Assembly (NCBI GenBank): GCA_041665505.1
Contig: JBAYIR010000001.1
Coordinates: forward strand, 147,108-211,107
DNA: 64,000 bases
Source: Patescibacteria group bacterium
GTDB taxonomy: Bacteria > Patescibacteriota > Patescibacteriia > UBA1558 > GWA2-36-10
Direction of reading: 5' to 3'
In this document: one piece after another, positions 3,477-60,452 of the stretch
How positions within the stretch are numbered: position 1 is the first letter of the stretch
Layout of the letters: every line of letters starts with the position of its first letter
Translations under genes and position numbers: made by a program
Notes under the pieces: model-generated
Told to the model about the DNA's origin: nothing
Seen by the model: only the letters and a program-made list of their open reading frames with translations
Databases searched by the model: none

Positions 3477-3518
3477 TTTATTATTACTAATACTTAATAA
3501 AAATTAATTTTTAAGGGG

Positions 3519-4169: not shown

Positions 4170-4251
4170 GGGATTGTTGGGTAATATAGATTTTTCCCGC
4201 CAGAGGCGGACAGGTAGCTAATATTAGATAAAATTTGTTGGTATTTATATA

Positions 4252-4280
4252 TTGACAAATTTTTTGTTATATGATATAAT
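4252..4280 (+). promoter_or_regulatory. Sigma-70-type promoter (TTGACA-17-TATAAT) driving the GC-rich cassette 1 ORF
   Basis: TTGACA lies at 4252-4257, followed by a 17-nt AT-rich spacer and TATAAT at 4275-4280. A 10-bp perfect hairpin in the 5' UTR (TGACCAATAC/GTATTGGTCA) lies at 4329-4354. The RBS GGAGGA sits 7 nt upstream of the ATG at 4409. Confidence 0.55.
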
Positions 4281-4408
4281 AATACGTTCACTACTAAGGT
4301 GGGCTAATTGTGTCTTGTGACCAATACGCCTTAGTATTGGTCATTGAAATAGAGTTTAGTCGAAACACACGCAAGAGAGTCACTCGATAGAGAAGAAGGA
4401 GGAAAGTC

Positions 4409-6622: not shown

Positions 6623-6652
6623 ACATACTTCCCTCTCAGAGGGGAAACAACA

Positions 6653-6688
6653 CCGGGACGTTTGAAAGGGCGTCCCGGTTTTCTATTT
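6653..6688 (+). terminator. Intrinsic terminator of cassette 1
   Basis: An 8-bp stem CCGGGACG/CGTCCCGG with a 10-nt loop is followed by TTTTCTATTT. A small hairpin CCCTC-tca-GAGGG precedes it. Confidence 0.7.
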
Positions 6689-6711
6689 GCTAAAATCTGG
6701 ACTTATATTTA

Positions 6712-6745
6712 TCAATCAAAAAATCCGCTAGTTTAGCGGATTTAA
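6712..6745 (-). terminator. Intrinsic terminator of dus (overlaps its stop codon)
   Basis: On the minus strand, the hairpin AATCCGCTA-aac-TAGCGGATT is followed by TTTTTTG. The stop TAG lies inside the stem. Confidence 0.6.
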
Positions 6746-7714
6746 TATTTTCTCTACATCATCAGGATTGCTTACAGTCACTAGTTGTTTTCTTAGTTCA
6801 CTAGCATCAGGTCGGCCTTTGACATAAAATAATAAATGTTTTCTCATTTCTATAAAAGCTCTTTCATTTTTTGATTGCCATAGCAAGTGAGCGTGCCTGA
6901 TAGCTGTTTCTTTGATAGTCGGCCAAGTGACTTCTTGGTAGCTGCCTGTGTCAATATAGTCTCTTATCTGCTTAAAGAGCCAAGGACGACCGTATAGAGC
7001 CCGAGATAGGGCTATACCATCAGCTTGAGTATATTTAAGGTCTGTTACTACTGACTCTATAGTCTGAAAAGAGCCATTGATAAGATATATAGACTGGGGG
7101 AAAGTGGTTTTAAATTTTTGACCAGCCTCACGCAACATTTCCAAATCCACTGGACCAGTAAAAGGTACTTCGTAGCTTCGGCCATGCAGTATCAAAGCAG
7201 CTAGTGGCAAATCTGATAGAGCATCTATAAAATCAAAAATAGTAATGTCACCAGAGTCAGGCTGACCTTGAGTTTTTCGCAGGCTAATTCTAGTTTTGAC
7301 TGATACAGGTATATCTACAGCTTCTATAGTTTTGGTGACAATGTCTCTGACAGTTTTCATATCTCTCAGTAGACAAATACCCCCACCGTGGCCAGCTACT
7401 TTTTTGGCGGGGCAACCAAAATTTATATCAATACCAGCTACGCCAGTTTTGGCGACAATTTTAGCGGCCTGAGGGTAGAGATCTGCTTGTTTGCCAAATA
7501 TTTGGACTACTACTGGTTGTTCACTGGCTTGATACTCTAGCATCTGTATAGTTTTAGAACTAGCATGGCAAAGAGCATCCACCGAGACAAACTCAGTGTG
7601 GACTATGTCAGCTCCCCAAGACTTACATATTTGACGCCAAGCGCTATCAGTAATACCAGCCATAGGCGTCATAGATAGTATGGGTTTTTTTAGATTTTGC
7701 CAAAAGTTTTCCAT
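6728..7714 (-). CDS. dus: tRNA-dihydrouridine synthase (Dus family)
   Basis: MTPMAGITDSAWRQICKSWGADIVHTEFVSVDAL and the following FMN-binding TIM-barrel motifs are typical of DusB-like enzymes. Confidence 0.85.
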   Translation of the reverse strand: MENFWQNLKKPILSMTPMAGITDSAWRQICKSWGADIVHTEFVSVDALCHASSKTIQMLEYQASEQPVVVQIFGKQADLYPQAAKIVAKTGVAGIDINFGCPAKKVAGHGGGICLLRDMKTVRDIVTKTIEAVDIPVSVKTRISLRKTQGQPDSGDITIFDFIDALSDLPLAALILHGRSYEVPFTGPVDLEMLREAGQKFKTTFPQSIYLINGSFQTIESVVTDLKYTQADGIALSRALYGRPWLFKQIRDYIDTGSYQEVTWPTIKETAIRHAHLLWQSKNERAFIEMRKHLLFYVKGRPDASELRKQLVTVSNPDDVEKILNPLN

Positions 7715-7788: not shown

Positions 7789-8712
7789 TCAGAGCCATTT
7801 TTTGTTGCGGAAAAATACTAAAAAGAACATAATAACAACCAAAATGAAACTCAACATAATATAAAAATCACCAGCTGAACCAATAAAAGGCATGTGTTTG
7901 GCGTTCATACCAAATATAGAAGATATCAAAGTAGCTGGAATCATCACTACAGATACTACAGTCAATGTCTTCATAATGTCATTTAAACGGTGAGATATTA
8001 GTGATTCATTGGTTTCTTGGAAAGTATTGATATTTTCTTTAAGGGTTTCCAAAATATCCCAAATGTCTTTAGTCCTATCTAAAATATTACTAAAGTAAAT
8101 ATTCATCATATCATGCATGAAAAATTTATTGTTGGCACTCATTAGTTTTTTGATGATAGTTTTATGCGCTTGCATAATACGACGAAAATCTACAATATTT
8201 CTTTTGGTATGGAGTATTTCTATTACTAGTTTTTTTTCTTCTCCTTTGAAAATTCTTTTTTCTATATCTTCAATTTCTTGAGTGATATGGTCTAGCATCG
8301 GCATGGTGTAGTTTTGCAAGCGGTGTAAAACTTCATAAAGTAAAAATACAGAATGGCCGTCCATCATAAATTTATCTCGGCTGTATTCATTGGTTTTTAG
8401 TTCATTGAAAAAGTTTTTTATAGTAGGTGTTCGGCCGTCAGATATGGTAATTAAGTATTTTGGTCCAATAAAAAAATCAACTTCACTAGATTCTATTTCC
8501 CGAGTCTCTCTATTGTAAGCGGGGAAAGTCAATATAAAAAATATATAGTGAGTATACTCACTGATTTGAGGCCTTTGGATTCTACCTAGGCAGTCTTCAA
8601 GATCTAGAGGATGAAAATCGTATTCTTTTTGTAGATATTCAATTTCTGCTCGGGTCGGTTTTTCGATATGCAACCAGAGTATTTTTTTTGTTTTTATTTT
8701 GTCTATTTTCAT
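7789..8712 (-). CDS. corA: Magnesium/cobalt transporter CorA
   Basis: The GMN signature (SIFGMNAKHMPF) is followed by two C-terminal TM helices. Confidence 0.85.
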   Translation of the reverse strand: MKIDKIKTKKILWLHIEKPTRAEIEYLQKEYDFHPLDLEDCLGRIQRPQISEYTHYIFFILTFPAYNRETREIESSEVDFFIGPKYLITISDGRTPTIKNFFNELKTNEYSRDKFMMDGHSVFLLYEVLHRLQNYTMPMLDHITQEIEDIEKRIFKGEEKKLVIEILHTKRNIVDFRRIMQAHKTIIKKLMSANNKFFMHDMMNIYFSNILDRTKDIWDILETLKENINTFQETNESLISHRLNDIMKTLTVVSVVMIPATLISSIFGMNAKHMPFIGSAGDFYIMLSFILVVIMFFLVFFRNKKWL

Positions 8713-13285: not shown

Positions 13286-13975
13286 ATGAGCAACGAATTA
13301 TTATTTATATTTTTTACATTATTTTTATTAAGTTTATCTCTTTTAGCTTTTAGGCTAGGCAAGGCTTATATATTTATTTTAGTAGCTCTCTATAGTCTTT
13401 TGATGAATATATTTGTATTGAAGCAGTTTACTTTATTTGGTTTAGCAGTGACTGGTGGCAATTCACTTTATGGGGCCTTATTTTTGTTGACAGATTTGCT
13501 GTCTGAACATTATAACGAACGTGAAGCTTTTAAAGCAGTTTTGGTAGGATTTGTAACTTCATTTATTTTTGTAGTATCTACTCAAATACTATTGGCTTAT
13601 TCGGTTAATGAATTTGATTTTGCTCAGGCACATTTAGTAGCTTTATTCTCCTTGTCTCCTCGTATATTATTTGCTTCAATGTTGGCTTATATTATTTCCC
13701 AAAGTTTTGATGTCTGGGCTTTTAATAAAATTCGTCGCTTAACTAATAATAGATTTTTATGGCTAAGAAATAATCTCTCTACATTTGTTGCTCAATTTAT
13801 AGATACTATAATTTTTACTGCGCTTGGTCTGACTGCTTTTAGTTTTTTGCCTTTTCCAGGAGTAATAGCTAGTGATTTGTTTTGGCCAGTAGTTATAGCT
13901 ACTTATATAATTAAAGTCTTAGTCGCTTTATTAGACACTCCTTTTTTGTACTGGAGCTACAAGATAAAAAAATAA
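13286..13975 (+). CDS. YhhQ/Vut_1-family membrane protein (putative queuosine-precursor transporter)
   Basis: The protein is polytopic with the segment SQSFDVWAFNKIRRLT. It is transcribed divergently from lexA. Confidence 0.45.
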   Translation: MSNELLFIFFTLFLLSLSLLAFRLGKAYIFILVALYSLLMNIFVLKQFTLFGLAVTGGNSLYGALFLLTDLLSEHYNEREAFKAVLVGFVTSFIFVVSTQILLAYSVNEFDFAQAHLVALFSLSPRILFASMLAYIISQSFDVWAFNKIRRLTNNRFLWLRNNLSTFVAQFIDTIIFTALGLTAFSFLPFPGVIASDLFWPVVIATYIIKVLVALLDTPFLYWSYKIKK

Positions 13976-14033
13976 TAATTATTTTATAATCAACTATTTA
14001 TTAGCTTTTGAGATATAATAGTAGATTTTTTTG

Positions 14034-14062
14034 TTGACAAAAAATTTCATAAACTATAAAGT
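14034..14062 (+). promoter_or_regulatory. Promoter of cassette 2 unit a (TTGACA ... TATAAA)
   Basis: TTGACA at 14034-14039 is followed 15-17 nt later by TATAAA/TAAAGT. The RBS GGAGGA lies ahead of the ATG at 14129. Confidence 0.45.
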
Positions 14063-14128
14063 ATTTTAGCGTCCCTAGGCTCTTGATTCCTTCCCGCGTG
14101 TGACTCTCACTGAACTGGAGGACTTAGC

Positions 14129-14596
14129 ATGAGCAACATCGTAGGTAGTCCCTTGTTGCAGCGCATTACTGGCTGCTCAACCGACATTGCCACCGCCGCT
14201 CAGCAGGCGGTGGAGAGCCTAATGAAGCATCTTCAAGTTGGCACTTTGGTGCCTGGAAGCTGGAAGCTCTACTGGGCGCCGGAGTACTACAAGGACCCCA
14301 AACTTGAGTACGCTAGTGTCTTTAAGGTAGAGATCATTCTGACCATTCAGGCTCAGGCGGGTAGCCTCCCGCCACAGGACTCGCGGCAGTGGTTCGTAAG
14401 CGAGATCATCGCCTCTGATGATCGTAGCGACAGAGCCATGATGGCCGCCGTGCAGCAGGCTACTGCTGTGATGGTCGAGCACGGCCTCAACGAGAATGAG
14501 TGTCAGAGTCTCATTCTCTGCTACACCAAGGACAACAAGGTCTACTGCTCCTTCTGGCTGTTCTACTACGCCGAGCAGGAAGTGGACTGTCACTGA
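14129..14596 (+). CDS. Hypothetical 155-aa protein (high-GC cassette 2)
   Basis: The ORF is GC-rich and has a GGAGGA RBS with a 7-nt spacer. It is followed by the terminator GGAGGCAGCAC-tgcg-GTGCTGCCTCC. No family is recognised. The antisense ORF 14219-14593 is judged spurious. Confidence 0.5.
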   Translation: MSNIVGSPLLQRITGCSTDIATAAQQAVESLMKHLQVGTLVPGSWKLYWAPEYYKDPKLEYASVFKVEIILTIQAQAGSLPPQDSRQWFVSEIIASDDRSDRAMMAAVQQATAVMVEHGLNENECQSLILCYTKDNKVYCSFWLFYYAEQEVDCH

Positions 14597-14623
14597 GTTT
14601 TGATCCCTCAGCGGATCGTTTTA

Positions 14624-14658
14624 GGAGGCAGCACTGCGGTGCTGCCTCCTGCCTTTTA
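14624..14658 (+). terminator. Intrinsic terminator of cassette 2 unit a
   Basis: An 11-bp stem with a 4-nt loop is followed by TGCCTTTTA. Confidence 0.65.
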
Positions 14659-14693
14659 CTTAATTTTAATTATAGTATTTTGTGTTTATTTAG

Positions 14694-14721
14694 TTGACAA
14701 AAAACTTATTTTAGGTTAATT
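14694..14721 (+). promoter_or_regulatory. Promoter of cassette 2 unit b (TTGACA-16-TTAATT)
   Basis: TTGACA lies at 14694-14699. The -10 element is weak. Confidence 0.35.
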
Positions 14722-14778
14722 TCTTTGGGCTTAGTGTTATTTCACAGTTGACTAGGACTCCAACGAAAGGATTCGAGC

Positions 14779-15093
14779 ATGTCCAAGCGTATGGTGGTTG
14801 TTCAACACAGCCATGTTATTGGAGTGTGTTCTGGTACCGTCAGAGTTGAGCGTCTGGAAAATGCTCAGACTGGCGTCCGTTTCAGGTTGAAGATTGGCAG
14901 TGAGCGTTCTGTCAGTAGCCCTGACATCGCAGAGCTGACCAGCTGTCTCAAAGACCAGGTCTTTGCTCGCCGTGTGAGCCAGGCTTTTACTATGGAGGCG
15001 CCGACTATTTCTTCTCTTCGACCAATGCTTCCCAAGTTCAAGGTGAAGTTCTTAGCCACGAAGGCTCGCCGTGACGAGGATCTGTTCGATTAA
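14779..15093 (+). CDS. Hypothetical 104-aa protein (high-GC cassette 2)
   Basis: The ORF is GC-rich with an AGGA RBS. No family is recognised. Confidence 0.45.
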   Translation: MSKRMVVVQHSHVIGVCSGTVRVERLENAQTGVRFRLKIGSERSVSSPDIAELTSCLKDQVFARRVSQAFTMEAPTISSLRPMLPKFKVKFLATKARRDEDLFD

Positions 15094-15115
15094 ATGTAAA
15101 AAATGGAGGAACTCC

Positions 15116-15343
15116 GTGCCTAAAATCAGCCTGGCCAAGGCTGATCCTATCCGTCAGCAGATACTATTGGTGGTTGAGTCTTGGCCCAAGGCAGAAGGCG
15201 AATGCAAGCCGAGCGCGGTTTGCTGTTTGGTCGCTGAAACTGGTGCGGCTAGCTATGGCGATTGCGCCCAGCAAGTGGCTATCCTTTTGCAACAAGGAGA
15301 ACTGAAAATAGAGCCTCAGCAAAGAGGGCTCTACGTTCCGTGA
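15116..15343 (+). CDS. Hypothetical 75-aa protein (high-GC cassette 2), GTG start
   Basis: A perfect GGAGGA lies 5 nt upstream of the GTG at 15116. The ORF-track start at 15071 would overlap the preceding ORF. The terminator follows immediately. Confidence 0.4.
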   Translation: MPKISLAKADPIRQQILLVVESWPKAEGECKPSAVCCLVAETGAASYGDCAQQVAILLQQGELKIEPQQRGLYVP

Positions 15344-15345
15344 GA

Positions 15346-15380
15346 GGGGCTTCGGGAAACCGAAGCCCCTTAACTTTTTT
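15346..15380 (+). terminator. Intrinsic terminator of cassette 2 unit b
   Basis: GGGGCTTCGG-gaaa-CCGAAGCCCC is followed by TTAACTTTTTT. Confidence 0.75.
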
Positions 15381-16662
15381 ATTGAATAGTTAAATAATAA
15401 TTTTCTTCGGGACTCAGGACAAATAGTCTTTCACCTTTTTTATCAAAGAGATAACTTTTTTTACGAGGGTTGTTGATAAGTTCTATATTATTTCTTTTGT
15501 CTCTACCATCTAATTCAGTCAAAGTAGTGCTATCATTTATTTCTGAGACAAAATAACTACCATTGGGATGCCAAAATACATCAGCTACTATATTAGAGGA
15601 TCTATCAATTAGATTTTGCCAGTCATTTTTATAATTAAAAAGTATTATTTCATGGCCATTGGTCATCAGTAGTCTTTCATCATGCAACTCTACTACCGTA
15701 ATTGGTATAGTAATTAAATCCTTAAAAATATTTTTGATATATAATTTTGAACCCAAAGTAAAGATAAGATAATTATCTTCCACTAGTAATATATCTAAAT
15801 TACCTAAATTGACATTATTTATTACTTGTTTTGTCTCTAGATTACTTTTATTCAGTTGTTCAACAAAATTATTTTTATTCAGAGTATATTGAATGATTAG
15901 CCAATTATCTTTGATAGCAAAATCATTTATAGGGTTTTTAATATTCAAAAGTTCATCAGCTTCACCAGTTGCTTGGTGTTTGTGTCTGTAGAGTTTACTA
16001 TCTTTAAGATAAAGCAAAGTATCGGTGCCATTTTCCCAAACAATTTTTTGTAGACCGATGATGGGTAAAGGGTCTAGTTGTTTTTGATCAATATTAAAGC
16101 TAAAATATTTTGTATCAGCTTGAACTATTATTTGTTGGTTATCTATAGACCAATCAATTAATTCATATTTTTGGTCTAGGGTAGTTATTTCAAAAACCTT
16201 GGCTTGTTCAATATCAGTAATTAATAAGCGTTTCTCATTATCTATAAAAGCATATTTATTTTTATCTTTATTGAGCAAAAATTTTTCACTGCCAGCACTT
16301 AAAATTGTTTTTGGTCTATTGTCTAAAAATAATACAATATCTTCGGCAAAAGTAGTTTCTCCAGAATAAATATCCAGTTCTTTGTTCCAAGTTACATAAT
16401 TATCTTTACTGACTTTTAACTTATGCGTGCCGGGGGGTATATTTACTACTTGAGTGGGAGTTTTGTTTTTATTTTTTTTGTCATTTACAAAAATTTCTGC
16501 ACCACGAGGGAAAGATTTGATATAAAAAGCGCCATTTTTTTTGAGATTACCAGTTTTAAAATCATACCTATAGCCCAAAGAATAGGTCGTTAGTAACGGT
16601 GCTAAAATAAAAAATAGTATAAAAAATATTGAAACAGTAATTTTTCTAAAGATTTTTTCCAT
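15379..16662 (-). CDS. PEGA-domain/beta-propeller-like envelope protein
   Basis: An N-terminal TM helix is present. A PEGA-like segment (FYIKSFPRGAEIFVNDKK...GTHKLKVSKDNYVTWNKELDIYSGETT) is followed by a repeat-rich C-terminal region. Confidence 0.55.
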   Translation of the reverse strand: MEKIFRKITVSIFFILFFILAPLLTTYSLGYRYDFKTGNLKKNGAFYIKSFPRGAEIFVNDKKNKNKTPTQVVNIPPGTHKLKVSKDNYVTWNKELDIYSGETTFAEDIVLFLDNRPKTILSAGSEKFLLNKDKNKYAFIDNEKRLLITDIEQAKVFEITTLDQKYELIDWSIDNQQIIVQADTKYFSFNIDQKQLDPLPIIGLQKIVWENGTDTLLYLKDSKLYRHKHQATGEADELLNIKNPINDFAIKDNWLIIQYTLNKNNFVEQLNKSNLETKQVINNVNLGNLDILLVEDNYLIFTLGSKLYIKNIFKDLITIPITVVELHDERLLMTNGHEIILFNYKNDWQNLIDRSSNIVADVFWHPNGSYFVSEINDSTTLTELDGRDKRNNIELINNPRKKSYLFDKKGERLFVLSPEENYYLTIQ

Positions 16663-28890: not shown

Positions 28891-30678
28891 ATGACCGAAA
28901 GAGAATTATTACAACAAAAGGAGAACCATATTCTCAAACTTGAAAAAGAAATTGAGAAATGGAAAAAAGCAGTTAAAACTCAAAGATATGGTTTAGTATG
29001 GCTTGATGTGCCCGAAGCGTTTGAAGATGATGTTGAGAACAAATTGCCAATTCTTGAGGAAGTACCTAAAAAAGCTATAAAAAGTATAGACGAAAAACCT
29101 ACACATTTACTCATTGAGGGAGATAACTATCACGCACTTACTTGTTTGAATTACACACACAAAGGAAAGATAGATGTTATTTATATAGACCCACCATACA
29201 ACACGGGTTCGGATGGTTTTAGATATAAAGATAAAAGGATATTAGACCAATATCCCGATGGTACTGAAGTACCAAAAGACCATCCTTTTAGGCATAGCTA
29301 CTGGTTGTCTTTTATGAGTAAAAGATTGGAACTCGCAAAAAGTTTATTAAAAGATACTGGAACTATATTTATTTCAATTAACGAAGACGAATTCGCACAA
29401 CTAAAGTTACTTTGTGACAGAATTTTTGGTCTAGAAAATTATTTGACAATGTTTACTATTAAAGTACGGCACGAGGAGCGTATTCTCAAGGGGGATAAAG
29501 ATTTTCACGAGGTGGTTGAATATCTTTTATTGTACAGAAATTCATCTAACTATAAAACTATAAAAAAAATATATGATAATACTTCTCTAGATGAATATGT
29601 ATATCAGATTATTGAAAAAATAAAAAAACCTAAATCAGTTAAGCTTGGAAATAAAATAGTTGAGTATTTTGAACCATCGCAATATGAAATAAAAAAAGTT
29701 CCAGCAAGTGCAGATAATTTGAAAAAAATAAACATTCGGGGTTCTTTGAAAGAAGGAAATAGTAGTGGCAGATTTTATATGAATTATATCGCTTCTAGGG
29801 GCACTAAGGGAGTGTTGTATAAAGTGCCTAATATGGGAGCGGATAAGTTTGGTTATAGGTATTTTTTGATACCAGCTAAGGAAAATAGATTAAATGGAGA
29901 TTATTTTCAAGGCGTGCCTTTAGATATACAAGATACCAAAGAAGTGCCATATCCTAACTATTTTGACCTTGAAAAAGAGTTTAATAATGTTGGATATGAG
30001 GGAGGTGTTAATTTTGGAGGTGGAAAGAAACCTATAGATTTCCTTAGGCATTTTATTAACATTGGCTCTTTAAATAAAGATGCAATCATATTAGATTTTT
30101 TTGCTGGTTCAGGAAGTACAGGGCACGCAGTTATGCAGATGAATGAAGATGATGAAGGTCATAGGCAGTTCATTTTAGTCACAAATAATAATGAAATTGT
30201 AAAAGATAAAGTTTACCACCCAATGTCTGAAGCGTGTCTACCAAGAATAAAGAATGTGATTAAGGGTTATGATAAAAATCCAAGTTTGGGAAATTCAATC
30301 AAATACTATAAAACTTCTTTTGTTGGTAAACATAACATTCTTGATGCGGATGATAAGGATAAAATACAACTTGCTCATCACGCAGGCGAAATGCTTGCAA
30401 TAGCTGAAAATACCTTAGAGCAAATAAAGAAAAACGACTATTGGCAGATATTTGAAAATACAAACAGAATGACAGCTATATATTTCCGAGAAGAACAAGA
30501 TAGACTTGATGAATTTGTGAAAGAAGTTTTAGCACTCAAAAAACCAGTAACGGTGTATATGTTTAGTTGGGAAGAAAAGGTTGAAATTATCGATTTTGAA
30601 GACATTCACAACATAAGCCTAAAAACTATACCTCAGCCAATTCTTGAAATATATAAGCAGATATATAACATTATTTAG
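28891..30678 (+). CDS. mod: Type III R-M DNA methyltransferase (Mod, N6-adenine/N4-cytosine beta-class)
   Basis: The DPPYNTGSD motif (motif IV) precedes FFAGSGSTGHA (motif I), the circularly permuted order typical of Mod. The gene is followed by a Res helicase gene. Confidence 0.8.
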   Translation: MTERELLQQKENHILKLEKEIEKWKKAVKTQRYGLVWLDVPEAFEDDVENKLPILEEVPKKAIKSIDEKPTHLLIEGDNYHALTCLNYTHKGKIDVIYIDPPYNTGSDGFRYKDKRILDQYPDGTEVPKDHPFRHSYWLSFMSKRLELAKSLLKDTGTIFISINEDEFAQLKLLCDRIFGLENYLTMFTIKVRHEERILKGDKDFHEVVEYLLLYRNSSNYKTIKKIYDNTSLDEYVYQIIEKIKKPKSVKLGNKIVEYFEPSQYEIKKVPASADNLKKINIRGSLKEGNSSGRFYMNYIASRGTKGVLYKVPNMGADKFGYRYFLIPAKENRLNGDYFQGVPLDIQDTKEVPYPNYFDLEKEFNNVGYEGGVNFGGGKKPIDFLRHFINIGSLNKDAIILDFFAGSGSTGHAVMQMNEDDEGHRQFILVTNNNEIVKDKVYHPMSEACLPRIKNVIKGYDKNPSLGNSIKYYKTSFVGKHNILDADDKDKIQLAHHAGEMLAIAENTLEQIKKNDYWQIFENTNRMTAIYFREEQDRLDEFVKEVLALKKPVTVYMFSWEEKVEIIDFEDIHNISLKTIPQPILEIYKQIYNII

Positions 30679-30679
30679 T

Positions 30680-33055
30680 ATGAAAAACTTTAACCCATTA
30701 CAATTTCAAAAAACTGCCGTAGAAAATCTTACAGATATATTTATTTCGGTATGGAAGCAACAAGGCAGGCAATTGCCCATTGTTTTGAAATCACCAACTG
30801 GAAGTGGTAAAACGTTTATAACATCACTTTTTGTTCGTGGCCTTAACCATTTACCACAATGGAAAGAAGATAAGGCATTTATTTGGATTACTTTTAGTGA
30901 TGATTTGGCTATGCAGAGCAAAGGAAAATTTCTTGAGTATTTTGAAAATATGCTTGAAAATAGAACTTTAACTGTTGCAGATATAAATCAAGGCAAACTT
31001 TATCCAAATGATATTTTATTCTTGAACTGGCAAAAAGTAATAGCAAAAAATGCAGAGACAAGATTAATTCGTCGTCCAGAAGATGAGGAATGGGCAAAAG
31101 AAACTGGTAAGTACTTTGAAGATGTGATTGAACAAACTCAAGCAGATGGTAGACAAATCATTTTAATTATTGATGAAGCTCATAAAAATAAAGATACAAA
31201 ACTAGCAAAGGACATTATTGATAAAATTGACCCTAAAGTAATTCTTCACATTACAGCAACACCAAATGAAGCGGACGAGCTAAATTCTCGCCGTCTTGGT
31301 AGTTATTATGAAGTTCCAAGAAAAGAGGTAGTTGAGCAAGGGCTAATCAAAGAAGCGATTGTCACTCAAACAGAAGAAGATTTTCAGGGTATGTCAGGCA
31401 AAGACCTTGATGAAATTCTTCTTGAAAATGGAATAAATAAACGAGAAGAGTTAAAAGCCGAATTTAGTGCACTTGGAAAAAATATAAATCCCTTGATGTT
31501 GATACAGATACCAAATGATGATAGTAAACTAATTGAAAAAGGTGAACAAACAAAGGAAGAAATTGTTATAGATTATCTTATTAAGATGAAAGTGCCTAAA
31601 CATAAAATTGCCAAATGGTCTAAGGGACAAGATAAACCAAAAGGACTAGAAGACAATGATGATGAACACGATTTTCTTATTTTTAAACAAACTGCTGGTA
31701 CTGGTTGGGATTGTCCTCGTGCATCTGTACTTGTGATGTTTAGAGAAATACAATCAAATACTTTTTATACTCAAACGGTTGGACGTATTTTGAGAATGCC
31801 AGAACCTCAAGCTAGGGAAGATTATAAAAATAATCCTAATCTTCGCTTGGGTTATTTATATACAAATTATAAACGTAAGGAAGTGGTTATACCAGACCAA
31901 AATCCTGCAAATAAACCACTAACAGAAACTGCCCATCGGAAAAATGGTATAAATAATATAGAGTTATCTTCAGATTATATCTCTCGTTTGGACTACGGTG
32001 ATATTCGCGTATCATCAAAATTTCAAGAGGTATTTAAAACAGAGCTTAATAAACATTTTGGAATTACAAGTAGTGATATTTTAGGTAAAGCTGAAATAAA
32101 GTTAAAAAAAGCAGGCTTAGACCTGACAGATACTTTAGTAAATGAAGTTATAGCCAATGCTCGTTTTGAGGATTACGACAATCTCGCCTTTGATTTTAAA
32201 AAGAAAGGTAGCGATGTTTCTCTTGAAATGTCGGTAAGTGATATTGAAAAAACTTTTAATTATCTTTGTTACCAAATTTTAAAAGAACAAGAAGATAGTA
32301 AGGCTAAATACTCAAATGTTGCTCGTTCTTGGTCGGTGCTAAAACAAGCACTTCGTGTTTGGTTTAAAACTGTTTTAAAAGATGACCATATTTATTGGTA
32401 TAAGATATTTATTAAAGATGTTCGTAAGGGTGCAGAAAGTAAATTTCGTCCAGCAATAACAAAAGCACTTAGAGCTTATAAACCAATATCAGACAGTTTG
32501 CTTGTTGAAAAGAAAAGGAAAGTGGAAGAAAAAGAGTCATATATTTTTACCATACAGAATGAGTATCAATACCCAGAAGATTATAAGATTGTGCCTCAAA
32601 AATTATGTGTCTTAGATAAATTTTATTTACCCGAAGATTATAATGGGCGTAAAAATGAAATTGCTTTTGTTGAGTATCTAGAAAAGAAGAAAGGGAAGAT
32701 TGATTGGTGGTTCAAAAACGGCAATCAAGGTAAAAAATATCTTGGTATTAAATATACAAACTCATCCACAAAAGAAGAAGACTTGTTTTACCCTGATTGG
32801 ATTATTAGTTTTTCAGATGGTCGTATAGGTATTTTTGATACAAAAAAGGGTAATACATTGTTCGATTTTGGAACACCAGAAAAGGCAGATGCACTACAAA
32901 AAAAACTTAGGGTATTTGGCAAAAAGTTTATAGGTGGCATTGCCTACCAAGAAGGAGTTATTTGGTATTACAATGACAGTCCAAAATACTCTTTTAAGGA
33001 AGGAGAATCAGTAAATGACAATAAGCAATGGAAGCCTTTTGAAGATTTATTTTAA
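30680..33055 (+). CDS. res: Type III restriction enzyme Res subunit (SF2 helicase/nuclease)
   Basis: Walker A (PTGSGKT) and a DEAH box (IIDEAHKN) are present. The protein is large and lies downstream of mod. The start is moved to the ATG at 30680. Confidence 0.75.
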   Translation: MKNFNPLQFQKTAVENLTDIFISVWKQQGRQLPIVLKSPTGSGKTFITSLFVRGLNHLPQWKEDKAFIWITFSDDLAMQSKGKFLEYFENMLENRTLTVADINQGKLYPNDILFLNWQKVIAKNAETRLIRRPEDEEWAKETGKYFEDVIEQTQADGRQIILIIDEAHKNKDTKLAKDIIDKIDPKVILHITATPNEADELNSRRLGSYYEVPRKEVVEQGLIKEAIVTQTEEDFQGMSGKDLDEILLENGINKREELKAEFSALGKNINPLMLIQIPNDDSKLIEKGEQTKEEIVIDYLIKMKVPKHKIAKWSKGQDKPKGLEDNDDEHDFLIFKQTAGTGWDCPRASVLVMFREIQSNTFYTQTVGRILRMPEPQAREDYKNNPNLRLGYLYTNYKRKEVVIPDQNPANKPLTETAHRKNGINNIELSSDYISRLDYGDIRVSSKFQEVFKTELNKHFGITSSDILGKAEIKLKKAGLDLTDTLVNEVIANARFEDYDNLAFDFKKKGSDVSLEMSVSDIEKTFNYLCYQILKEQEDSKAKYSNVARSWSVLKQALRVWFKTVLKDDHIYWYKIFIKDVRKGAESKFRPAITKALRAYKPISDSLLVEKKRKVEEKESYIFTIQNEYQYPEDYKIVPQKLCVLDKFYLPEDYNGRKNEIAFVEYLEKKKGKIDWWFKNGNQGKKYLGIKYTNSSTKEEDLFYPDWIISFSDGRIGIFDTKKGNTLFDFGTPEKADALQKKLRVFGKKFIGGIAYQEGVIWYYNDSPKYSFKEGESVNDNKQWKPFEDLF

Positions 33056-33058
33056 TTT

Positions 33059-34654
33059 ATGAAAGCAATAAATGTCTCAAGAGTATCAACCGAAGAACAA
33101 AAAGAAGCTGGTAATTCTTTGCCTGCTCAGATTGAACGTGTAGACGCTTATTGTAAGAGAAAAGATTTTGAAGTTATTAAATCTTTTAGTTTTGATGAAA
33201 GTGCTTATAAAGATAAGCGAGATGAGTTTGATAAACTACTTGAGTATGTTCAAAAAATAGCCACAAAGGAAAAGGTGGCTGTTTGTTTTGATAAAGTAGA
33301 CAGACTTTCAAGAAGTGTATTTGATAAGAGAGTTGCCGTATTTTATCAAATGGCTTTAGAAGATAAAATAGAGTTGCATTTTGTTTCAGACAATCAAATC
33401 ATAAACGGAAAATTATCGGCAACAGAAAAAAGTGGATTTGGTATGAGCCTTGTAATGGCTAGTTACTATTCAAATGCAATAAGTGATAATGTTAAGAGAG
33501 CATTTGAGCAAAAAAGACGTAATGGAGAATGGACAGGGCAAGTACGCTTAGGGTATTTAAACGTTAGTTTAGACCAAGCAAAAAGATTACGCAAAGACAT
33601 TATCATAGACCCAGACAAAGGGCATCTTATACAGAAAATGTTTGAACTCTATGCTACTGACCAATACTCTTTGAAAACCTTGCAAATTAAAATTAGTGAG
33701 CTTGGTTTGAGAACTCGCTATGGAAATAAACTTTCATTAAGTGGCATAGAAAAAATCATTAAGGACAGTTTTTATTGTGGTATTGCTATGTCAACAAAGT
33801 ATGGTTCTTATGCCCATAAATATCCTCGTTTAATATCAAGAGAACTCTTTGATAAGTGCCAACAGATACGCACCAAACGCAATAAAATGCCCTATAAGGC
33901 ACACTCTAAGGACTTTATGCTAAAAGGCCTGTTAAGATGTAATAATTGTGGTTGTTTAATGAGCCCTCAAAAACAGACTAAGAAAAGTGGACTTGAATTT
34001 ATCTATTATACTTGTACGAATGCCAAAGGTATATGCAAAAAAATATATATACCAGAAAAAGACCTTTTAAAACCAATCTATGATGTTTTAGAAAGATTTG
34101 AGAGTATAAGTGAGGAAGTACAGAATGGTCTTGTTGAGGAATTACGCAAATGTACCGAAATAGAAGTAGTATTTCATAAGGCACAAATAAATCGTATTCG
34201 AACAGATTATGATAATTTAAAAGCGAAGCAAAATAGACTTCTTGATGCATTTTTAGACCAGAGTATTACTAAGGACATCTATGACAAGAAACATCAAGAG
34301 TATCAAGACCAAATACAAACTTTAGAAATTGAAATGTCTGAACATCAGAAAGCAGATTTTGATTACAAAACTACTGTCGCTACAGTCATTTCCGTAGCAC
34401 GCAGAGCAAAAACTATATTTGAAAATAGTTCTGAAGTTGCTGGAAAAAGAACATTTTTGAGTTACATACTTCAGAACCCGATTGTAACAGGTAGAATACT
34501 TACCTTTGACCTCAAAAAACCCTTTGATTTAGTGCTAAGTCTTGCTGATAACCAAAGAAAAAAGACTATCGTTTCTGATAGTCATCTTTCTTGGCTCGGG
34601 GACAGGGATTCGAACCCCGGTTGGCTGGACCAAAACCAGCTGTCCTACCACTAG
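33059..34654 (+). CDS. Large serine recombinase (integrase)
   Basis: The N-terminal resolvase domain carries the catalytic Ser (NVSRVSTEEQ). A recombinase domain, a zinc ribbon (CNNCGC...YYTC) and a coiled coil follow. The last roughly 63 nt overlap the tRNA-Gln on the opposite strand. Confidence 0.85.
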   Translation: MKAINVSRVSTEEQKEAGNSLPAQIERVDAYCKRKDFEVIKSFSFDESAYKDKRDEFDKLLEYVQKIATKEKVAVCFDKVDRLSRSVFDKRVAVFYQMALEDKIELHFVSDNQIINGKLSATEKSGFGMSLVMASYYSNAISDNVKRAFEQKRRNGEWTGQVRLGYLNVSLDQAKRLRKDIIIDPDKGHLIQKMFELYATDQYSLKTLQIKISELGLRTRYGNKLSLSGIEKIIKDSFYCGIAMSTKYGSYAHKYPRLISRELFDKCQQIRTKRNKMPYKAHSKDFMLKGLLRCNNCGCLMSPQKQTKKSGLEFIYYTCTNAKGICKKIYIPEKDLLKPIYDVLERFESISEEVQNGLVEELRKCTEIEVVFHKAQINRIRTDYDNLKAKQNRLLDAFLDQSITKDIYDKKHQEYQDQIQTLEIEMSEHQKADFDYKTTVATVISVARRAKTIFENSSEVAGKRTFLSYILQNPIVTGRILTFDLKKPFDLVLSLADNQRKKTIVSDSHLSWLGDRDSNPGWLDQNQLSYH

Positions 34655-34665
34655 ACGATCCCCGA
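34592..34665 (-). tRNA. tRNA-Gln (anticodon UUG)
   Basis: The minus-strand read is TCGGGGATCGTCTAGTGGTAGGACAGCTGGTTTTGGTCCAGCCAACCGGGGTTCGAATCCCTGTCCCCGAGCCA. It has a 7-bp acceptor stem (U1-A72), an anticodon stem GCTGG/CCAGC with loop TTTTGGT, a T-loop TTCGAAT, discriminator G and an encoded CCA. Confidence 0.8.
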
Positions 34666-34795
34666 ATATTGTATAAAACAAAAAAATTATAGTATATATT
34701 TAATTTTTAGTCAATGGAAAGAGGACCCCGAGACGCTATGTAGCATCATGTATTCGGGGCCCCCTTGTCGGTCAGCTGGTTGTCCTAGCTAGTAG

Positions 34796-35029
34796 CTAGT
34801 CCAGCCAGCTATCGCCGGTCGGATCGCAGCAGTTGTCTTCCATCATGATCTGCCAGATGCAGATCCAACCGAAGCGGTTGAAGCCGAACTCGAGTGCCAG
34901 GTCGCATCCCCAGGGCATGAGCCCACCGGCGTGGGCAGTCCGGGGCACCGTGGCGATACCCAGAGCCGTGATCAGGGTAATGGTCGCGAGGACCCTCCCG
35001 ATCTTCTTTTTCAGGCTTTTCGGAAACAT
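34796..35029 (-). CDS. Small secreted Cys/Trp-rich peptide precursor (77 aa; predicted 43-aa mature peptide)
   Basis: A Sec-type signal peptide (MFPKSLKKKIGRVLATITLITALGIATVPRTAHA|GG) is present. The mature part GGLMPWGCDLALEFGFNRFGWICIWQIMMEDNCCDPTGDSWLD contains 4 Cys. An RBS-like GAGGG lies 5 nt upstream. The gene sits in high-GC cassette 3. Confidence 0.45.
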   Translation of the reverse strand: MFPKSLKKKIGRVLATITLITALGIATVPRTAHAGGLMPWGCDLALEFGFNRFGWICIWQIMMEDNCCDPTGDSWLD

Positions 35030-35110
35030 GGTTTCCCTCTCTGTGGGGTGTGGTGTTGTGGCTGTTTACCACAACAAGTTAGCCGGAGTCTTATCCTCCT
35101 CTCTGGTAAA

Positions 35111-35776
35111 CTATTTGAAGTCTACCTTGACACGGTGATCTTCCACCACCAGTTTGTCTGTGGTGGTTACCCTCAAAACCTCCATGCCGAAGTAGGAGCT
35201 TGGTAGCCTCACCAGAACCACGTTAGGCAGGTCGGGTGAAGCACCTTTGTTGAACTTGTTGTCCATTCTGACTGGACCATCGCGGGTGTCTTTCCAATCA
35301 TCGGACGGACGATGTTTCTTGATGCAGATGATGCCGATATCCGGTACCTGGATTTCGCTGCCATCACCACCTCTGATGGTAAAGATCAATGCTCCAACCT
35401 CGTTGAAGAGTAGGTCAACTTGGTCAGGAATATACACACCAAGCCTGTAGACTATGACCTGCTCGCGTGCCAATGTGGCACTCAATTTGAGACTGGGTAT
35501 CTCATCGACCATGATTTCAAGCTGCTCTTTGATAAACTCTACCCGTTCTTCTCGTTGTAGTCTACGACCTCTTTGCCTTTCTTCTATTTGGATGGCCGTG
35601 CCAAGTTGAGGTTTCAGGTTATCGATGGGCCTGCTCCAGCTTTCATTGTAGCCAGAGAAGATCAGGACACCATCAGGAGTCTGGTTGATAGGAACGAAGT
35701 TGGCCTTGGCTTGTGCAACTGTGCTAGCGAGTAGCATCAGGCCGAGACACGCGAGAAACATGAATGTGTTTCGCAT
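35111..35776 (-). CDS. Hypothetical secreted protein (221 aa, Sec signal)
   Basis: The signal peptide MRNTFMFLACLGLMLLASTVAQA is present. The ORF is GC-rich. Its start overlaps the upstream stop (TAATG), so it is translationally coupled to the lipoprotein gene. Confidence 0.55.
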   Translation of the reverse strand: MRNTFMFLACLGLMLLASTVAQAKANFVPINQTPDGVLIFSGYNESWSRPIDNLKPQLGTAIQIEERQRGRRLQREERVEFIKEQLEIMVDEIPSLKLSATLAREQVIVYRLGVYIPDQVDLLFNEVGALIFTIRGGDGSEIQVPDIGIICIKKHRPSDDWKDTRDGPVRMDNKFNKGASPDLPNVVLVRLPSSYFGMEVLRVTTTDKLVVEDHRVKVDFK

Positions 35777-36057
35777 TAGCGATTACCTCTCTGCGGGTTA
35801 GGGTTCTTCGCATCCAGATTCTTGGTGTTGAAGACCGAGTTCTGGACTCTTGCTTCTGCATCAGCAATAGCTTCGCAACGCCAGGTGCCGTCTTTGTTGA
35901 CACACCGGTAGCTCTTACCATCTACAACGAAGACCTTGGTACTGTCAGGGATGACAGTGGTGTCACGAAACTGTGGGTGGTAGCTGTAACCACAACCAGT
36001 GATTAAGACCAGCATCAGGATGACGCCGATCAATTTGACGACGATTTTTTCAAACAT
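35776..36057 (-). CDS. Hypothetical lipoprotein (93 aa)
   Basis: A lipobox LITGC follows the hydrophobic N-terminus. A strong RBS AAGGAGG lies 6 nt upstream of the ATG. The gene is first in the operon. Confidence 0.55.
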   Translation of the reverse strand: MFEKIVVKLIGVILMLVLITGCGYSYHPQFRDTTVIPDSTKVFVVDGKSYRCVNKDGTWRCEAIADAEARVQNSVFNTKNLDAKNPNPQRGNR

Positions 36058-36139
36058 GCGGCGCCTCCTTAGTGGCGTTTTGCTTGGCGTTTTGCTCTTA
36101 CTGCGATTCGTGTTGTTAGAGAACTGTTATGCTAATTTC

Positions 36140-36190
36140 ATTATACATAAAATAACACTTAATTCAAGTATATTTCTTTATTTTTGTCAA
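36140..36190 (-). promoter_or_regulatory. Promoter region for the lipoprotein operon (minus strand): TTGACA, then TTGAAT-16-TATAAT
   Basis: On the minus strand, TTGACAAAAATAAAGAAATATACTTGAATTAAGTGTTATTTTATGTATAAT is present. A roughly 75-nt leader contains the tandem 11-bp repeat GCAAAACGCCA x2. Confidence 0.45.
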
Positions 36191-36202
36191 TAGATAAGTT
36201 AT

Positions 36203-36285
36203 GAAAATAAAGGTGGGGCTCGTCACACAACTGGGGGGAGTGTTGAAGTGACGAGCCCCGGTCTGCCCTCTAGGGGCAGTTTTTT
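36203..36285. terminator. Bidirectional intrinsic terminator between the two cassette-3 transcription units
   Basis: A 12-bp stem GGGGCTCGTCAC...GTGACGAGCCCC (36215-36259) is followed on the minus strand by ACCTTTATTTTC. On the plus strand, CTGCCC-tctag-GGGCAG is followed by TTTTTT (36263-36285). Confidence 0.6.
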
Positions 36286-36334
36286 GGTAGCTCTATACAG
36301 CTACGCAAGAGAAGACAATAAGACTAGTGTCTGG

Positions 36335-36400
36335 CTACTTCCTGAGCCACCAGAACAGATCCAGGAGCGCCAGCCCCATGAAGATCACTTCGTAATGCAT
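36335..36400 (-). CDS. Putative 21-aa hydrophobic micro-protein (MHYEVIFMGLALLDLFWWLRK)
   Basis: A perfect SD AAGGAGGTG lies 5 nt upstream of the ATG. One predicted TM helix. It sits between the receiver-like gene and the terminator. It is not in the ORF track because it is under 60 aa. Confidence 0.3.
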   Translation of the reverse strand: MHYEVIFMGLALLDLFWWLRK

Positions 36401-36449
36401 TATGCCACCTCCTTTCATACAATGGGAGTCTCACCCCCCAGTTGTATGA

Positions 36450-36854
36450 TCAGTGGTTGGCCATGCTCAACTGGTGAACGTAGTCAACCAGACGACCGAC
36501 ATTGAGCGGTTTGGGCATACAGAAGACCCCATACTCGCTCATCAGCCGTTCGATCTTGGTGTTGGGGTAGCGGTGGCTCATAGCCAGGGTGGTGATGTGC
36601 ACGCCAGCAGAGGTGAGAATCTCCATGAACCTCTCACTGTCGACATCCAGACACTCGATGATGATCACGTCAGGCAGAGGATCCCAGTTCAGCATCTTGC
36701 GGATCACCTTCGTGGTGTCGAGTTGAGCTCTGTAGATCTGGCCGTCAACCTGCTCGATGTTGGTCAGGACTTCATGTCCTTCGGACTCCAGGCCAAAGGC
36801 CATGGTCATGGCCGTATCCGGGTCGCTGTCGAAGATGAAAACGCGCTTCTTCAT
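36450..36854 (-). CDS. Stand-alone CheY-like receiver (REC) domain protein, atypical
   Basis: The N-terminal acidic pair is VFIFDSDPD. A KP motif (FCMPKPL) and a Thr (HITTLA) occupy the expected positions. The phospho-acceptor position appears to be Glu in DVIIIE (alignment by eye). An RBS AGGAG is present. The plus-strand ORF 36453-36872 is judged an antisense artefact. Confidence 0.4.
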   Translation of the reverse strand: MKKRVFIFDSDPDTAMTMAFGLESEGHEVLTNIEQVDGQIYRAQLDTTKVIRKMLNWDPLPDVIIIECLDVDSERFMEILTSAGVHITTLAMSHRYPNTKIERLMSEYGVFCMPKPLNVGRLVDYVHQLSMANH

Positions 36855-36875
36855 GGTTTTGCTCCTAGCTGAAGT

Positions 36876-36943
36876 GTCGGTTACGCTACTGGCTCAGGAT
36901 TGTCCAAGCGTCCAAATACAGACAATCCGTCTTCGCCTCACTC
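36876..36943 (+). repeat. Cassette-3 direct repeat copy A (about 67 bp, internal 7-bp dyad GATTGTC-N16-GACAATC)
   Basis: GTCGGTTACGCTACTGGCTCAGGATTGTCCAAGCGTCCAAATACAGACAATCCGTCTTCGCCTCACT. It lies 22 nt 5' of the REC gene start when read on the minus strand. Confidence 0.7.
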
Positions 36944-36974
36944 AGTCTCTCCTGTGTCGCCGATGAAGCTGATT

Positions 36975-37145
36975 TCAGTCAGACAGGCCTTTCTGTAGGG
37001 CTTTGGCCAGTTCATCTTCGTTCAGGTGACGCGTCGCAAACCTGACCTGCCGATACAATACCTTGGTATCGTAGTCCAGGTTTTCGTTGAGCCGGGCAAT
37101 GTGCTCTTGCACAATCTTGATATTCCGCCGGTGTTGGGGGCTCAT
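36975..37145 (-). CDS. Hypothetical 56-aa protein (MSPQHRRNIKIVQEHIARLNENLDYDTKVLYRQVRFATRHLNEDELAKALQKGLSD)
   Basis: An RBS AGGGAG lies 11 nt upstream of the ATG. The ORF-track start at 37178 is rejected. It is preceded by repeat copy B and an extended -10 (TGTTATACT). Confidence 0.35.
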   Translation of the reverse strand: MSPQHRRNIKIVQEHIARLNENLDYDTKVLYRQVRFATRHLNEDELAKALQKGLSD

Positions 37146-37223
37146 AGTATTCACACTCCCTGTTTTTGGGTAACACAAAACACCTCAAAGAGGCGTTTTG
37201 GCTAAGTATAACACAGCAAAAGT

Positions 37224-37290
37224 GCCGGTTACGCTACTAGCTCCAGATTGTCCAAGCGTCCAGATACAGACAATCCTTCTTCGCCTCACT
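37224..37290 (+). repeat. Cassette-3 direct repeat copy B
   Basis: GCCGGTTACGCTACTAGCTCCAGATTGTCCAAGCGTCCAGATACAGACAATCCTTCTTCGCCTCACT. It is about 90% identical to copy A. Confidence 0.7.
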
Positions 37291-37387
37291 GCTTCTCTTA
37301 TTTTGGTAAAGAACTTAGTTTACAAAAAAATACCCTTTCAGGCATTTCTGTAAATTAAGCTCTCAATATTGAGATTTATTACGCAAT

Positions 37388-37454
37388 GCCGGTTACGCTA
37401 CTAGCTCCAGATTGTCCAAGCGTCCAGATACAGACAATCCTTCAAAGCCTCATT
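37388..37454 (+). repeat. Cassette-3 direct repeat copy C
   Basis: It is identical to copy B over the first 54 nt (GCCGGTTACGC...GACAATCCTTC), and the tail then diverges. It lies just downstream (on the minus strand) of the ZIP gene stop and a TTGACA motif at 37505-37510. Confidence 0.7.
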
Positions 37455-37514
37455 GAATGATATTTATTGTAAATTATTAATACCCTACCACATAATTTTT
37501 ATTTTGTCAAGACC

Positions 37515-60062: not shown

Positions 60063-60452
60063 GGCCTAAATAGACCTCATAAGCCGAATTCTGTATTTCA
60101 GCAAATACTGAAATGATGATCATCTATCTAGGATTACAATCACTTGTAACCTCAAGCAGCCTACCCGTCCCCGAAGGGACCTATTTGGCCTTTCACCAGA
60201 TAGAAGTTTACCTCTTTCTACATGTCACCATGTAAACGTGTCGACTGATTATTCGACATTTTCACCCTTACCCATTCGACTCAGCCTTGCGGCTTTGCTC
60301 AGGGAGGAATATTCTCTGTTGCACTTGTCCTAACCTCAAACTCGCATTGAGGCTGGTTGGCGTTACCAACTATCTTTTTTATGGTGTTCGGACTTTCCTC
60401 TACCTATAGCTTTACGCTAAAGGTAGCAATCATCTCAGTCTATTTAGACCTT
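60063..60452 (-). ncRNA. rnpB: RNase P RNA (bacterial type A)
   Basis: The minus strand contains GGTAGAGGAAAGTCCGAACACCA (the P4 5' strand), AGTGCAACAGAGAAT, GGGTAAGGGTGAAAATG, GGGTAGGCTGCTTGAGG and ACAGAATTCGGCTTATGAGG (the P4 3' strand). The P1 stem is GGTCTAAATAGAC/GTCTATTTAGGCC. A TTGACA promoter lies upstream and a T-run at the 3' end. Confidence 0.9.

Follow-up and report, generated by a model that had tools for sequence, protein, structure and literature searches.

The class II aptamer for cyclic di-GMP (c-di-GMP) has already been published, as have arrays of two or three copies (PMC9481103) and the coupling of this class to response-regulator operons (cmrRST; PMC11477304). Among tandem c-di-GMP-II riboswitches there are 59 doublets and nine triplets, most of which precede a gene for a surface-anchor protein in Paraclostridium, and tandem riboswitches with separate expression platforms are expected to give a pseudo-cooperative, more digital response (Sherlock et al., 2022; PMC9481103). 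In Clostridioides difficile the CmrRST response-regulator system is under the control of a class II riboswitch (PMC11477304), and Bc3-5 of Bacillus thuringiensis is reported as a triple-tandem riboswitch of the c-di-GMP-I class (PMC4759541). The element considered here is a repeat present in three copies (A, B and C) within a 64,000 nt stretch of DNA from a Patescibacteria group bacterium (contig JBAYIR010000001.1, positions 147,108 to 211,107), hereafter the window. The three repeats are almost certainly c-di-GMP-II aptamers, with ligand binding predicted from their sequence. The explanation as a whole, in which paralogous class II aptamers C and B act as OFF switches in series and A as a third checkpoint, we regard as likely.

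A repeat search of the window yields one family with three direct copies, at 36867-36950 (A), 37215-37298 (B) and 37379-37462 (C). The preliminary description of this DNA gave three copies with spacings of 348 and 164 bp, which agree exactly with the start-to-start distances, but put their length at about 67 bp, whereas the repeated unit is about 84 nt long and corresponds to the full aptamer including its P1 stem. Identity above 90 % over a 55 nt core, as described there, holds between B and C (55/55) but is narrowly missed by A, which matches B or C at 49/55 positions (89 %). The dyad GATTGTC-N16-GACAATC does occur exactly three times in the window, once in each copy, and a 20 nt motif of the repeat matches these three sites alone when up to three mismatches are allowed (none expected, from 100 shuffles). 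The 18 nt tail said to be common to A and B was spelled with 14 letters, and these copies have TCTTCGCCTCACT alone (13 nt) in common. When the whole window was compared with Rfam at curated thresholds, five matches were found, three of them on the repeats. These are to RF01786 (clan CL00127), the c-di-GMP-II family, for which the gathering score is 53.5 bits and the model has 84 positions; all three copies exceed this score over the whole model and none is truncated (Table 1). The preliminary description did not recognize the element as a c-di-GMP-II riboswitch; its suggestion of a conserved RNA stem-loop in a 5′ leader read from the minus strand is correct, as seen from the full-length RF01786 match and the covarying helices.

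The dyad corresponds to the P2 stem of the aptamer and its 16 nt spacer to the P2 loop. In this loop ACGC forms a pseudoknot with GCGU, which lies immediately 5′ of the conserved AACCG, and compared with the Rfam consensus GCAC/GUGC this constitutes a double compensatory change. The six core differences between A and the other two copies either fall at unpaired variable positions or turn a G-U pair into G-C, and the P1 stems of A, B and C are completely different, yet each of them pairs. An alignment of 17 aptamers, consisting of the three copies and 14 from relatives and unrelated metagenome contigs, was used to assess four helices. Within it 85 % of cells are paired versus 62.6 % in column shuffles, none of 500 shuffles reaching the observed value; shifting the register by one to three columns lowers pairing to 30-45 %. 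Of the helices, P2 is 94.8 % paired and shows double changes in 8/8 pairs; P1a (3 bp) is 98 % paired and the pseudoknot 100 %, with compensatory changes in three of its four pairs, while the inner P1 pairs covary and the outer P1 is 68.6 % paired overall. In relatives the P2 dyad takes the forms GGAUUGUC/GACAAUCU, GAACUGUC/GACAGUUU, CAACUAUC/GAUAGUCG and AAUCAUC/GAUGAUU, with pairing kept in each. Nucleotides that do not vary in the alignment, and that A, B and C all possess, are G11, A12, C15, G19, A20, G55, A56 and G57, and likewise A60, U62, A68, A69, C70, C71 and C74. We take G19 A20 and G55 A56 to form a G.A/A.G kink-turn and the conserved nucleotides to make up the ligand pocket, presumably as in the published crystal structure.

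Because the sequence of the dyad varies in relatives while its base-pairing stays, the dyad is an RNA helix and not a DNA recognition site. The preliminary description had offered the opposite as one of its readings, with the repeats as operators for a dimeric regulator recognizing the 7 bp dyad with its 16 nt spacer, and the perfect dyad in all three copies, its proximity to a promoter and gene starts, and the receiver-like and small proteins encoded alongside would all suit that reading. The dyad is, however, the P2 stem of a full-length covariance-model match, the conserved unit of 84 nt reaches far past it and includes the pseudoknot partner, and the receiver-like protein (134 aa, single domain) has no DNA-binding domain. 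An operator is contradicted by the covariation and was rejected as exceedingly unlikely. The near identity of the copies, in an island of atypical G+C content beside tRNA and serine recombinase genes, could also be accounted for by a mobile or selfish element, such as a miniature inverted-repeat transposable element (MITE) or a repetitive extragenic palindromic (REP) element, or by decayed, non-functional duplicates, and the 3′ motif of the repeat is indeed found on more than 120 metagenome contigs. The preliminary description had proposed recurrence at many loci as a sign of a generic element of this kind; the recurrence is real, but the other matches are independent c-di-GMP-II aptamers that share the conserved 3′ motif, have differing covarying stems and come from genomes of 25-72 % G+C, and are not mobile copies (three matches on viral contigs are not aptamer-like). 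Furthermore, terminal inverted repeats and target duplications are absent, each copy combines a diverged yet pairing P1 with an expression platform of its own (for copy A see below), and the 64 kb hold three copies only, all in one leader and operon. We have therefore rejected the MITE or REP explanation, which is very unlikely. The earlier statement that the repeats are neither a clustered regularly interspaced short palindromic repeat (CRISPR) array nor attC sites is borne out. Since P2 is free to covary, its identity in A, B and C suggests recent duplication or gene conversion, which would have taken place within a modular, frequently exchanged leader family; the P1 stems may then have diverged so as to match each expression platform.

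It is also conceivable, at a rather slim chance, that the c-di-GMP-II fold is tuned to another ligand, for example some other cyclic or linear dinucleotide, as in variant families of the clan. Clan CL00127 does hold such families, with lower-scoring overlapping clan matches reported but suppressed in our search, a lower selectivity is reported for class II aptamers than for those of class I (PMC11477304), and no GGDEF or HD-GYP motif is present in a six-frame translation of the 64 kb window apart from a chance GGEEF in acetate kinase. Against this, within the clan all three copies score highest with the canonical family, and the highly conserved consensus nucleotides outside the covarying pseudoknot are all kept, including GAG, AGU and AACCG.

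On the minus strand the locus follows the Zip transporter gene, with the order Zip stop codon, promoter, aptamer C, terminator T1, aptamer B, terminator T2, 56-aa ORF, aptamer A, 134-aa gene, 21-aa ORF and the terminator-like hairpin T3 (Table 1). C with T1 and B with T2 are thus two complete riboswitches in one leader, 164 nt apart, and the same tandem arrangement is found in four related loci (L003, L189, L171 and L214; loci outside the window are given L numbers). The preliminary description placed each copy 5′ of a transcription unit, which is partly right: one leader holds both C and B, in tandem, and A lies within the operon. The leader promoter begins directly past the Zip stop codon. 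It was not listed by a simple promoter scan, its -10 being weak, and was read directly from the DNA, its function being presumed; TTGACA-N17-TAnnnT with a TG extension also lies upstream of the first aptamer in L003, L189, L171, L148 and L212. Its TTGACA is the one earlier seen beside copy C, and it does lie upstream of C on this strand. The extended -10 described as abutting copy B (TGTTATACT) instead sits 3′ of the aptamer, before the terminator, and lacks a convincing -35; the promoter scan gave no convincing promoter between C and B.

Table 1. Features of the riboswitch locus and insertion-bearing aptamers of related loci (SD, Shine-Dalgarno sequence; MFE, minimum free energy; coordinates are those of the window unless a related locus is named)
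Feature	Coordinates	Strand	Details
Leader promoter, predicted, sigma-70-type	37482..37510	-	TTGACA 37510..37505, 17 nt, TGgTAGGGT (-10 37487..37482)
Aptamer C (first in leader)	37378..37461	-	RF01786, 71.7 bits, model 1-84 of 84
Terminator T1	37324..37347	-	AAAUGCCU-GAAA-GGGUAUUU then U run; hairpin in MFE fold
Aptamer B (second, 164 nt after C)	37214..37297	-	RF01786, 65.2 bits, model 1-84 of 84
Terminator T2	37172..37199	-	AAAACGCCUC-UUU-GAGGUGUUUU-GUGUU; hairpin in MFE fold
56-aa ORF	36975..37145	-	MSPQHRRNIKIVQEHIARLNENLDYDTKVLYRQ...; from ORF list; SD GGGAG 37160..37156
Aptamer A (third, intra-operonic, 348 nt after B)	36866..36948	-	RF01786, 66.7 bits, model 1-84 of 84
134-aa receiver-fold gene	36450..36854	-	SD AGGAG 36866..36862
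21-aa ORF, putative coding	36335..36400	-	MHYEVIFMGLALLDLFWWLRK; read from sequence; SD AAGGAGG
Terminator-like hairpin T3	36203..36259	-	12-bp GC-rich stem GGGGCUCGUCAC/GUGACGAGCCCC then ACCUUUAUUUUC
Downstream module	34796..36167	-	own AT-rich promoter and three ORFs (93, 221, 77 aa)
Insertion-bearing aptamer, L003	6452-6595
Insertion-bearing aptamer, L004	1-110
Insertion-bearing aptamer, L189	~95-190
Insertion-bearing aptamers, L171	~7400-7490, ~8320-8415
Insertion-bearing aptamer, L148	~8000-8085

This locus resembles the tandem c-di-GMP-II riboswitches of Sherlock et al. (2022; PMC9481103) in that one leader contains several complete riboswitches, all of one class and each equipped with a platform, but differs in that two are strictly tandem and the third is intra-operonic, before the second gene, and in that a pseudo-receiver and small proteins are regulated, and not an adhesin, in another lineage. 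As members of RF01786 the aptamers share the helices, pseudoknot and conserved nucleotides of the family and are likewise found in a 5′ leader that has an expression platform; they differ from the rest of the family in their host, a genome of the Patescibacteria (candidate phyla radiation), in the pseudoknot sequence given above, and in the hairpin insertions in the P2 loop of relatives. The likeness to C. difficile (PMC11477304) lies in the aptamer class, in transcription termination, and in the control, by one of its riboswitches, of a response-regulator signal-transduction operon. Those riboswitches are, however, ON switches, whereas the architecture here predicts OFF, and CmrR and CmrT are regulators that bind DNA and have a kinase partner, in contrast to the stand-alone receiver fold encoded here, which has Glu in the acceptor position and no neighbouring kinase gene. 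Bc3-5 is similar in that three c-di-GMP riboswitches of similar sequence control one locus, but its aptamers are of class I (GEMM-I), which is not homologous to class II, and all three lie in a single 5′ untranslated region (PMC4759541). In the literature searched, neither a natural riboswitch nor a c-di-GMP riboswitch is reported from Patescibacteria. What appears to be new relative to that literature is the host lineage, the predicted OFF logic of class II aptamers, the intra-operonic third copy, and the conserved link to Glu-type pseudo-receivers that head a G+C-rich island.

The switching logic of C and B can be approached through the terminators, both arms of which lie outside the aptamers, 20-45 nt downstream, so that a folded aptamer could not prevent terminator formation. 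For T1 the 5′ arm reads AAUGCC (37346..37341) and has its complement, GGCAUU (37390..37385), in the 3′ portion of aptamer C; for T2 it reads CGCCUC (37195..37190), with the complement GAGGCG (37287..37282) in the 5′ portion of aptamer B. With the co-transcriptional decision point represented by transcripts truncated just before the terminator 3′ arm and then folded, the terminator 5′ arm pairs with an aptamer segment in 12/12 riboswitches of the lineage, B and C included; in the truncated transcript of C the T1 arm pairs with CGGCAU of the aptamer, and in that of B the T2 arm pairs with GAGGCG. The arm/aptamer complementarity covaries, with GAGGCG/CGCCUC in window B, GAGACG/CGUCUC in L171, GAGACA/UGUCUC in L003, GUGAGGCA/UGCCUCAC in L148 (twice), AGUGAGGC/GCCUCACU in L171 and UUGAGACG/CGUCUCAA in L214. 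In four relatives it beats that of shuffled arms (equalled in 0-3 of 200 shuffles), and the complementarity of the T1 arm to aptamer C is kept in L003 and L189. We propose that when ligand is absent the aptamer segment (GAGGCG in B, GGCAUU in C) would pair with the terminator 5′ arm as an antiterminator, whereas c-di-GMP would lock the aptamer and sequester the segment, upon which the terminator would form and transcription would stop. Two such OFF switches in series would shut off the operon, with its 56-aa protein, Glu-type pseudo-receiver and 21-aa peptide, more tightly and steeply ('pseudo-cooperatively') as c-di-GMP rises. We infer that C and B are probably transcriptional OFF switches.

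Several observations, besides the absence of a diguanylate cyclase motif from the window, weigh against this explanation. The duplexes of window B and C are 6 bp long and no better than those of shuffled arms (32/200 and 65/200 respectively), the terminators form regardless in full-length MFE folds, and OFF is not the default expectation for class II, since the characterized C. difficile riboswitches are ON switches (PMC11477304). For copy A, no terminator or recognizable expression platform was found, and pairing of the SD of the 134-aa gene with the aptamer is not above chance (149/500 shuffles equal it). Because the full-length folds form the terminators anyway, the OFF logic is drawn mainly from the stronger relatives and from co-transcriptional reasoning. 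If the tandem pair were instead genuine c-di-GMP-II riboswitches of the ON type, ligand would promote read-through as in C. difficile, where all characterized class II transcriptional switches behave in this way (PMC11477304), and the weakness of the antiterminator pairings in window B and C would be less surprising. This is nevertheless unlikely, as the terminator arms lie outside the aptamer, where its folding cannot interfere with them, and the 5′ arms have no alternative partners other than aptamer segments that ligand would sequester, pairings that occur in every one of the truncated folds and covary in relatives.

Copy A likely acts at translation initiation, as judged from its position. 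The 3′ strand of its P1 ends 1 nt before the SD AGGAG of the 134-aa gene, and this adjacency, the sole coupling found for A, makes translational control the most likely mode. Copy A would in this way serve as a third, gene-specific checkpoint on the receiver-like gene, in addition to the proposed OFF switches C and B.

The 134-aa protein has only 11 homologous clusters among 1.8 billion representative proteins, and as a single sequence it has no hit in Pfam, including Response_reg. The preliminary description had called it a receiver (REC) protein, a call that Pfam alone would miss and that is upheld by profile and fold. A profile of the family matches the PhoP and PhoB receiver domains in the PDB over its full length (E=7e-11), and an AlphaFold2 model (predicted local distance difference test score, pLDDT, 93.5; predicted template modelling score 0.88) has the (β/α)5 receiver fold. 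In a Foldseek search of the PDB the top 50 matches are almost all receiver domains, with template modelling (TM) scores of 0.65-0.84, and the best matches are all receivers (TM 0.73-0.8). The phospho-acceptor Asp at the end of β3 is missing, and in the profile alignment a Glu (PDVIIIECL) stands opposite Asp53 of PhoP; this position is mostly Glu in the family, with a few Asp. A single domain lacking any DNA-binding domain, the protein is thus a stand-alone receiver-fold protein, which probably acts without phosphorylation, and not a canonical response regulator. Scans with Pfam, PHROG and PADLOC assigned no family to the 56-aa protein or to the island proteins generally; the 56-aa protein has homologues in L003, L004, L006 and L007, with nine invariant positions, and always adjoins receiver-like genes. 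The 21-aa peptide recurs in L171 (MSMEHFLLALAVIDLFWWLRK; ...DLFWWLRK), at the end of ORF 7907-8158.

T3 is probably the end of the riboswitch-controlled unit; it folds at -39.9 kcal/mol (z = -8.0) and has a U-rich tail. The spacer at 36196-36455 (minus strand), which holds the 21-aa ORF, is highly structured (MFE -104.7 kcal/mol, z = -5.3), and a 16 nt inverted repeat (36223-36238/36434-36449) may pair the region just past the stop codon of the receiver gene with the loop and 3′ arm of T3, which could provide attenuator-like control of read-through. The module beyond T3 has its own promoter in the scan (TTGAAT-16-TATAAT at 36167..36140), encodes three exported- or lipoprotein-like products of 93, 221 and 77 aa, and ends beside tRNA-Gln (34592-34665); riboswitch control of this module would require read-through of T3 or action of the receiver-like protein. 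The 221-aa protein (35111-35776) is 88 % identical to its counterpart in L004 (1511-2176), and the DNA segment with the gene is 94 % identical. These values suggest that many of the substitutions in the gene are non-synonymous, and relaxed or diversifying selection could be acting on the secreted proteins of the island. The AlphaFold2 model of the 221-aa protein (pLDDT 46.8) is too poor for use, and a protein-based locus search with its family gave no locus in genome, metagenome or viral contigs; exact-protein look-ups and the DNA motif gave access to the relatives instead.

The host genome, that of a Komeilibacteria-like member of the Patescibacteria, is about 32 % G+C, and the riboswitch island (about 34700-37480), which adjoins tRNA-Gln, about 50 %. 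PyrG of the window is 86-89 % identical to that of metagenome-assembled genomes labelled Patescibacteria group, Candidatus Komeilibacteria and Candidatus Parcubacteria. L001 and L002 are 100 % identical to the window in independent assemblies, so the junctions are real, and L003 is a 45.9 kb contig with the same Fur-Zip synteny. One to three aptamers occur at the same position ahead of receiver-like genes in L003, L004, L006, L007, L148, L171, L189 and L212-L214. There are three in L171, two each in L148, L189 and L214, and one in L212 (GCA_028718865.1). L003 and L004 have the C equivalent and a second aptamer with a 60 nt extra hairpin, their regulator genes are divergent alleles and no third aptamer is present, and their downstream modules are 97 % and 94 % identical, respectively, to that of the window. 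The contigs of L006 and L007 start inside an aptamer, which is followed by two Response_reg genes. Second and third aptamers of relatives have an extra hairpin of 25-60 nt in the P2 loop, just 3′ of the pseudoknot strand (Table 1), and most of these insertion-bearing aptamers fall below the Rfam gathering score (L003 57.9 bits), so that standard annotation would miss them. In L148 the cargo (3455-6891, minus strand) is different, consisting of secreted proteins of 974 aa, with a Por/T9SS-like (type IX secretion system) C-terminal tail, and of 318 aa, together with two small, secreted Cys-rich peptides, yet at its head there are again c-di-GMP-II aptamers and a receiver-like gene. The cargo of the island is modular and its regulatory head is conserved.

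The island is the third of three G+C-rich cassettes (about 50-58 % G+C) in the window, at 4400-6620, about 14000-15400 and 34700-37480, whose ORFs (737 aa; 155, 104 and 90 aa) lack a Pfam, PHROG or PADLOC family. Scans with Rfam E-values found no riboswitch in the other two cassettes (3900-7000 and 13800-15600). Relatives with protein identities down to 53 % keep a high G+C content (L003-L008), indicating that the islands have not drifted to host composition. The far side of tRNA-Gln has host-like G+C content and encodes a restriction-modification pair of type III (PADLOC; Mod 28891-30678, Res 30644-33055) as well as a large serine recombinase (33059 to about 34591) containing Resolvase, Recombinase and Zn-ribbon domains; a search for att-like direct repeats around tRNA-Gln and the recombinase gene found none. 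The class A RNase P RNA gene (60064-60445, minus strand; 218.5 bits) is an ordinary housekeeping gene. Farther afield, tandem c-di-GMP-II aptamers 178 nt apart are present in unrelated G+C-rich organisms (metagenome contigs of 68-69 % G+C; L145 606-867 and L204 1053-1314), and many single aptamers with the same 3′ motif lie on soil contigs of 53-64 % G+C.

The aptamers belong to an ordinary riboswitch family in an unusual host and would not surprise a riboswitch specialist; nothing here goes beyond known riboswitch families and tandem architectures, and the value of the finding is mainly in annotation and leads. The boldest of these leads, which we think distinctly improbable as a whole, even more so than ON switching of the tandem pair, is that a clade of Patescibacteria, probably episymbionts, reads c-di-GMP purely by RNA, with one to three class II riboswitches gating a phosphorylation-independent module of pseudo-receiver and small proteins at the head of a hypervariable, G+C-rich, tRNA-adjacent island of secreted and surface proteins. 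If the organism has no diguanylate cyclases of its own, the riboswitches could sense c-di-GMP taken up from the host cell, and if copy A switched ON downstream of the two OFF switches, expression of the receiver-like gene would be confined to intermediate c-di-GMP, as in a band-pass. Regulation in the Patescibacteria is poorly understood, and a previously unexplained repeat becomes an annotated regulatory element that offers a testable handle on signalling in an uncultured, genome-reduced lineage.

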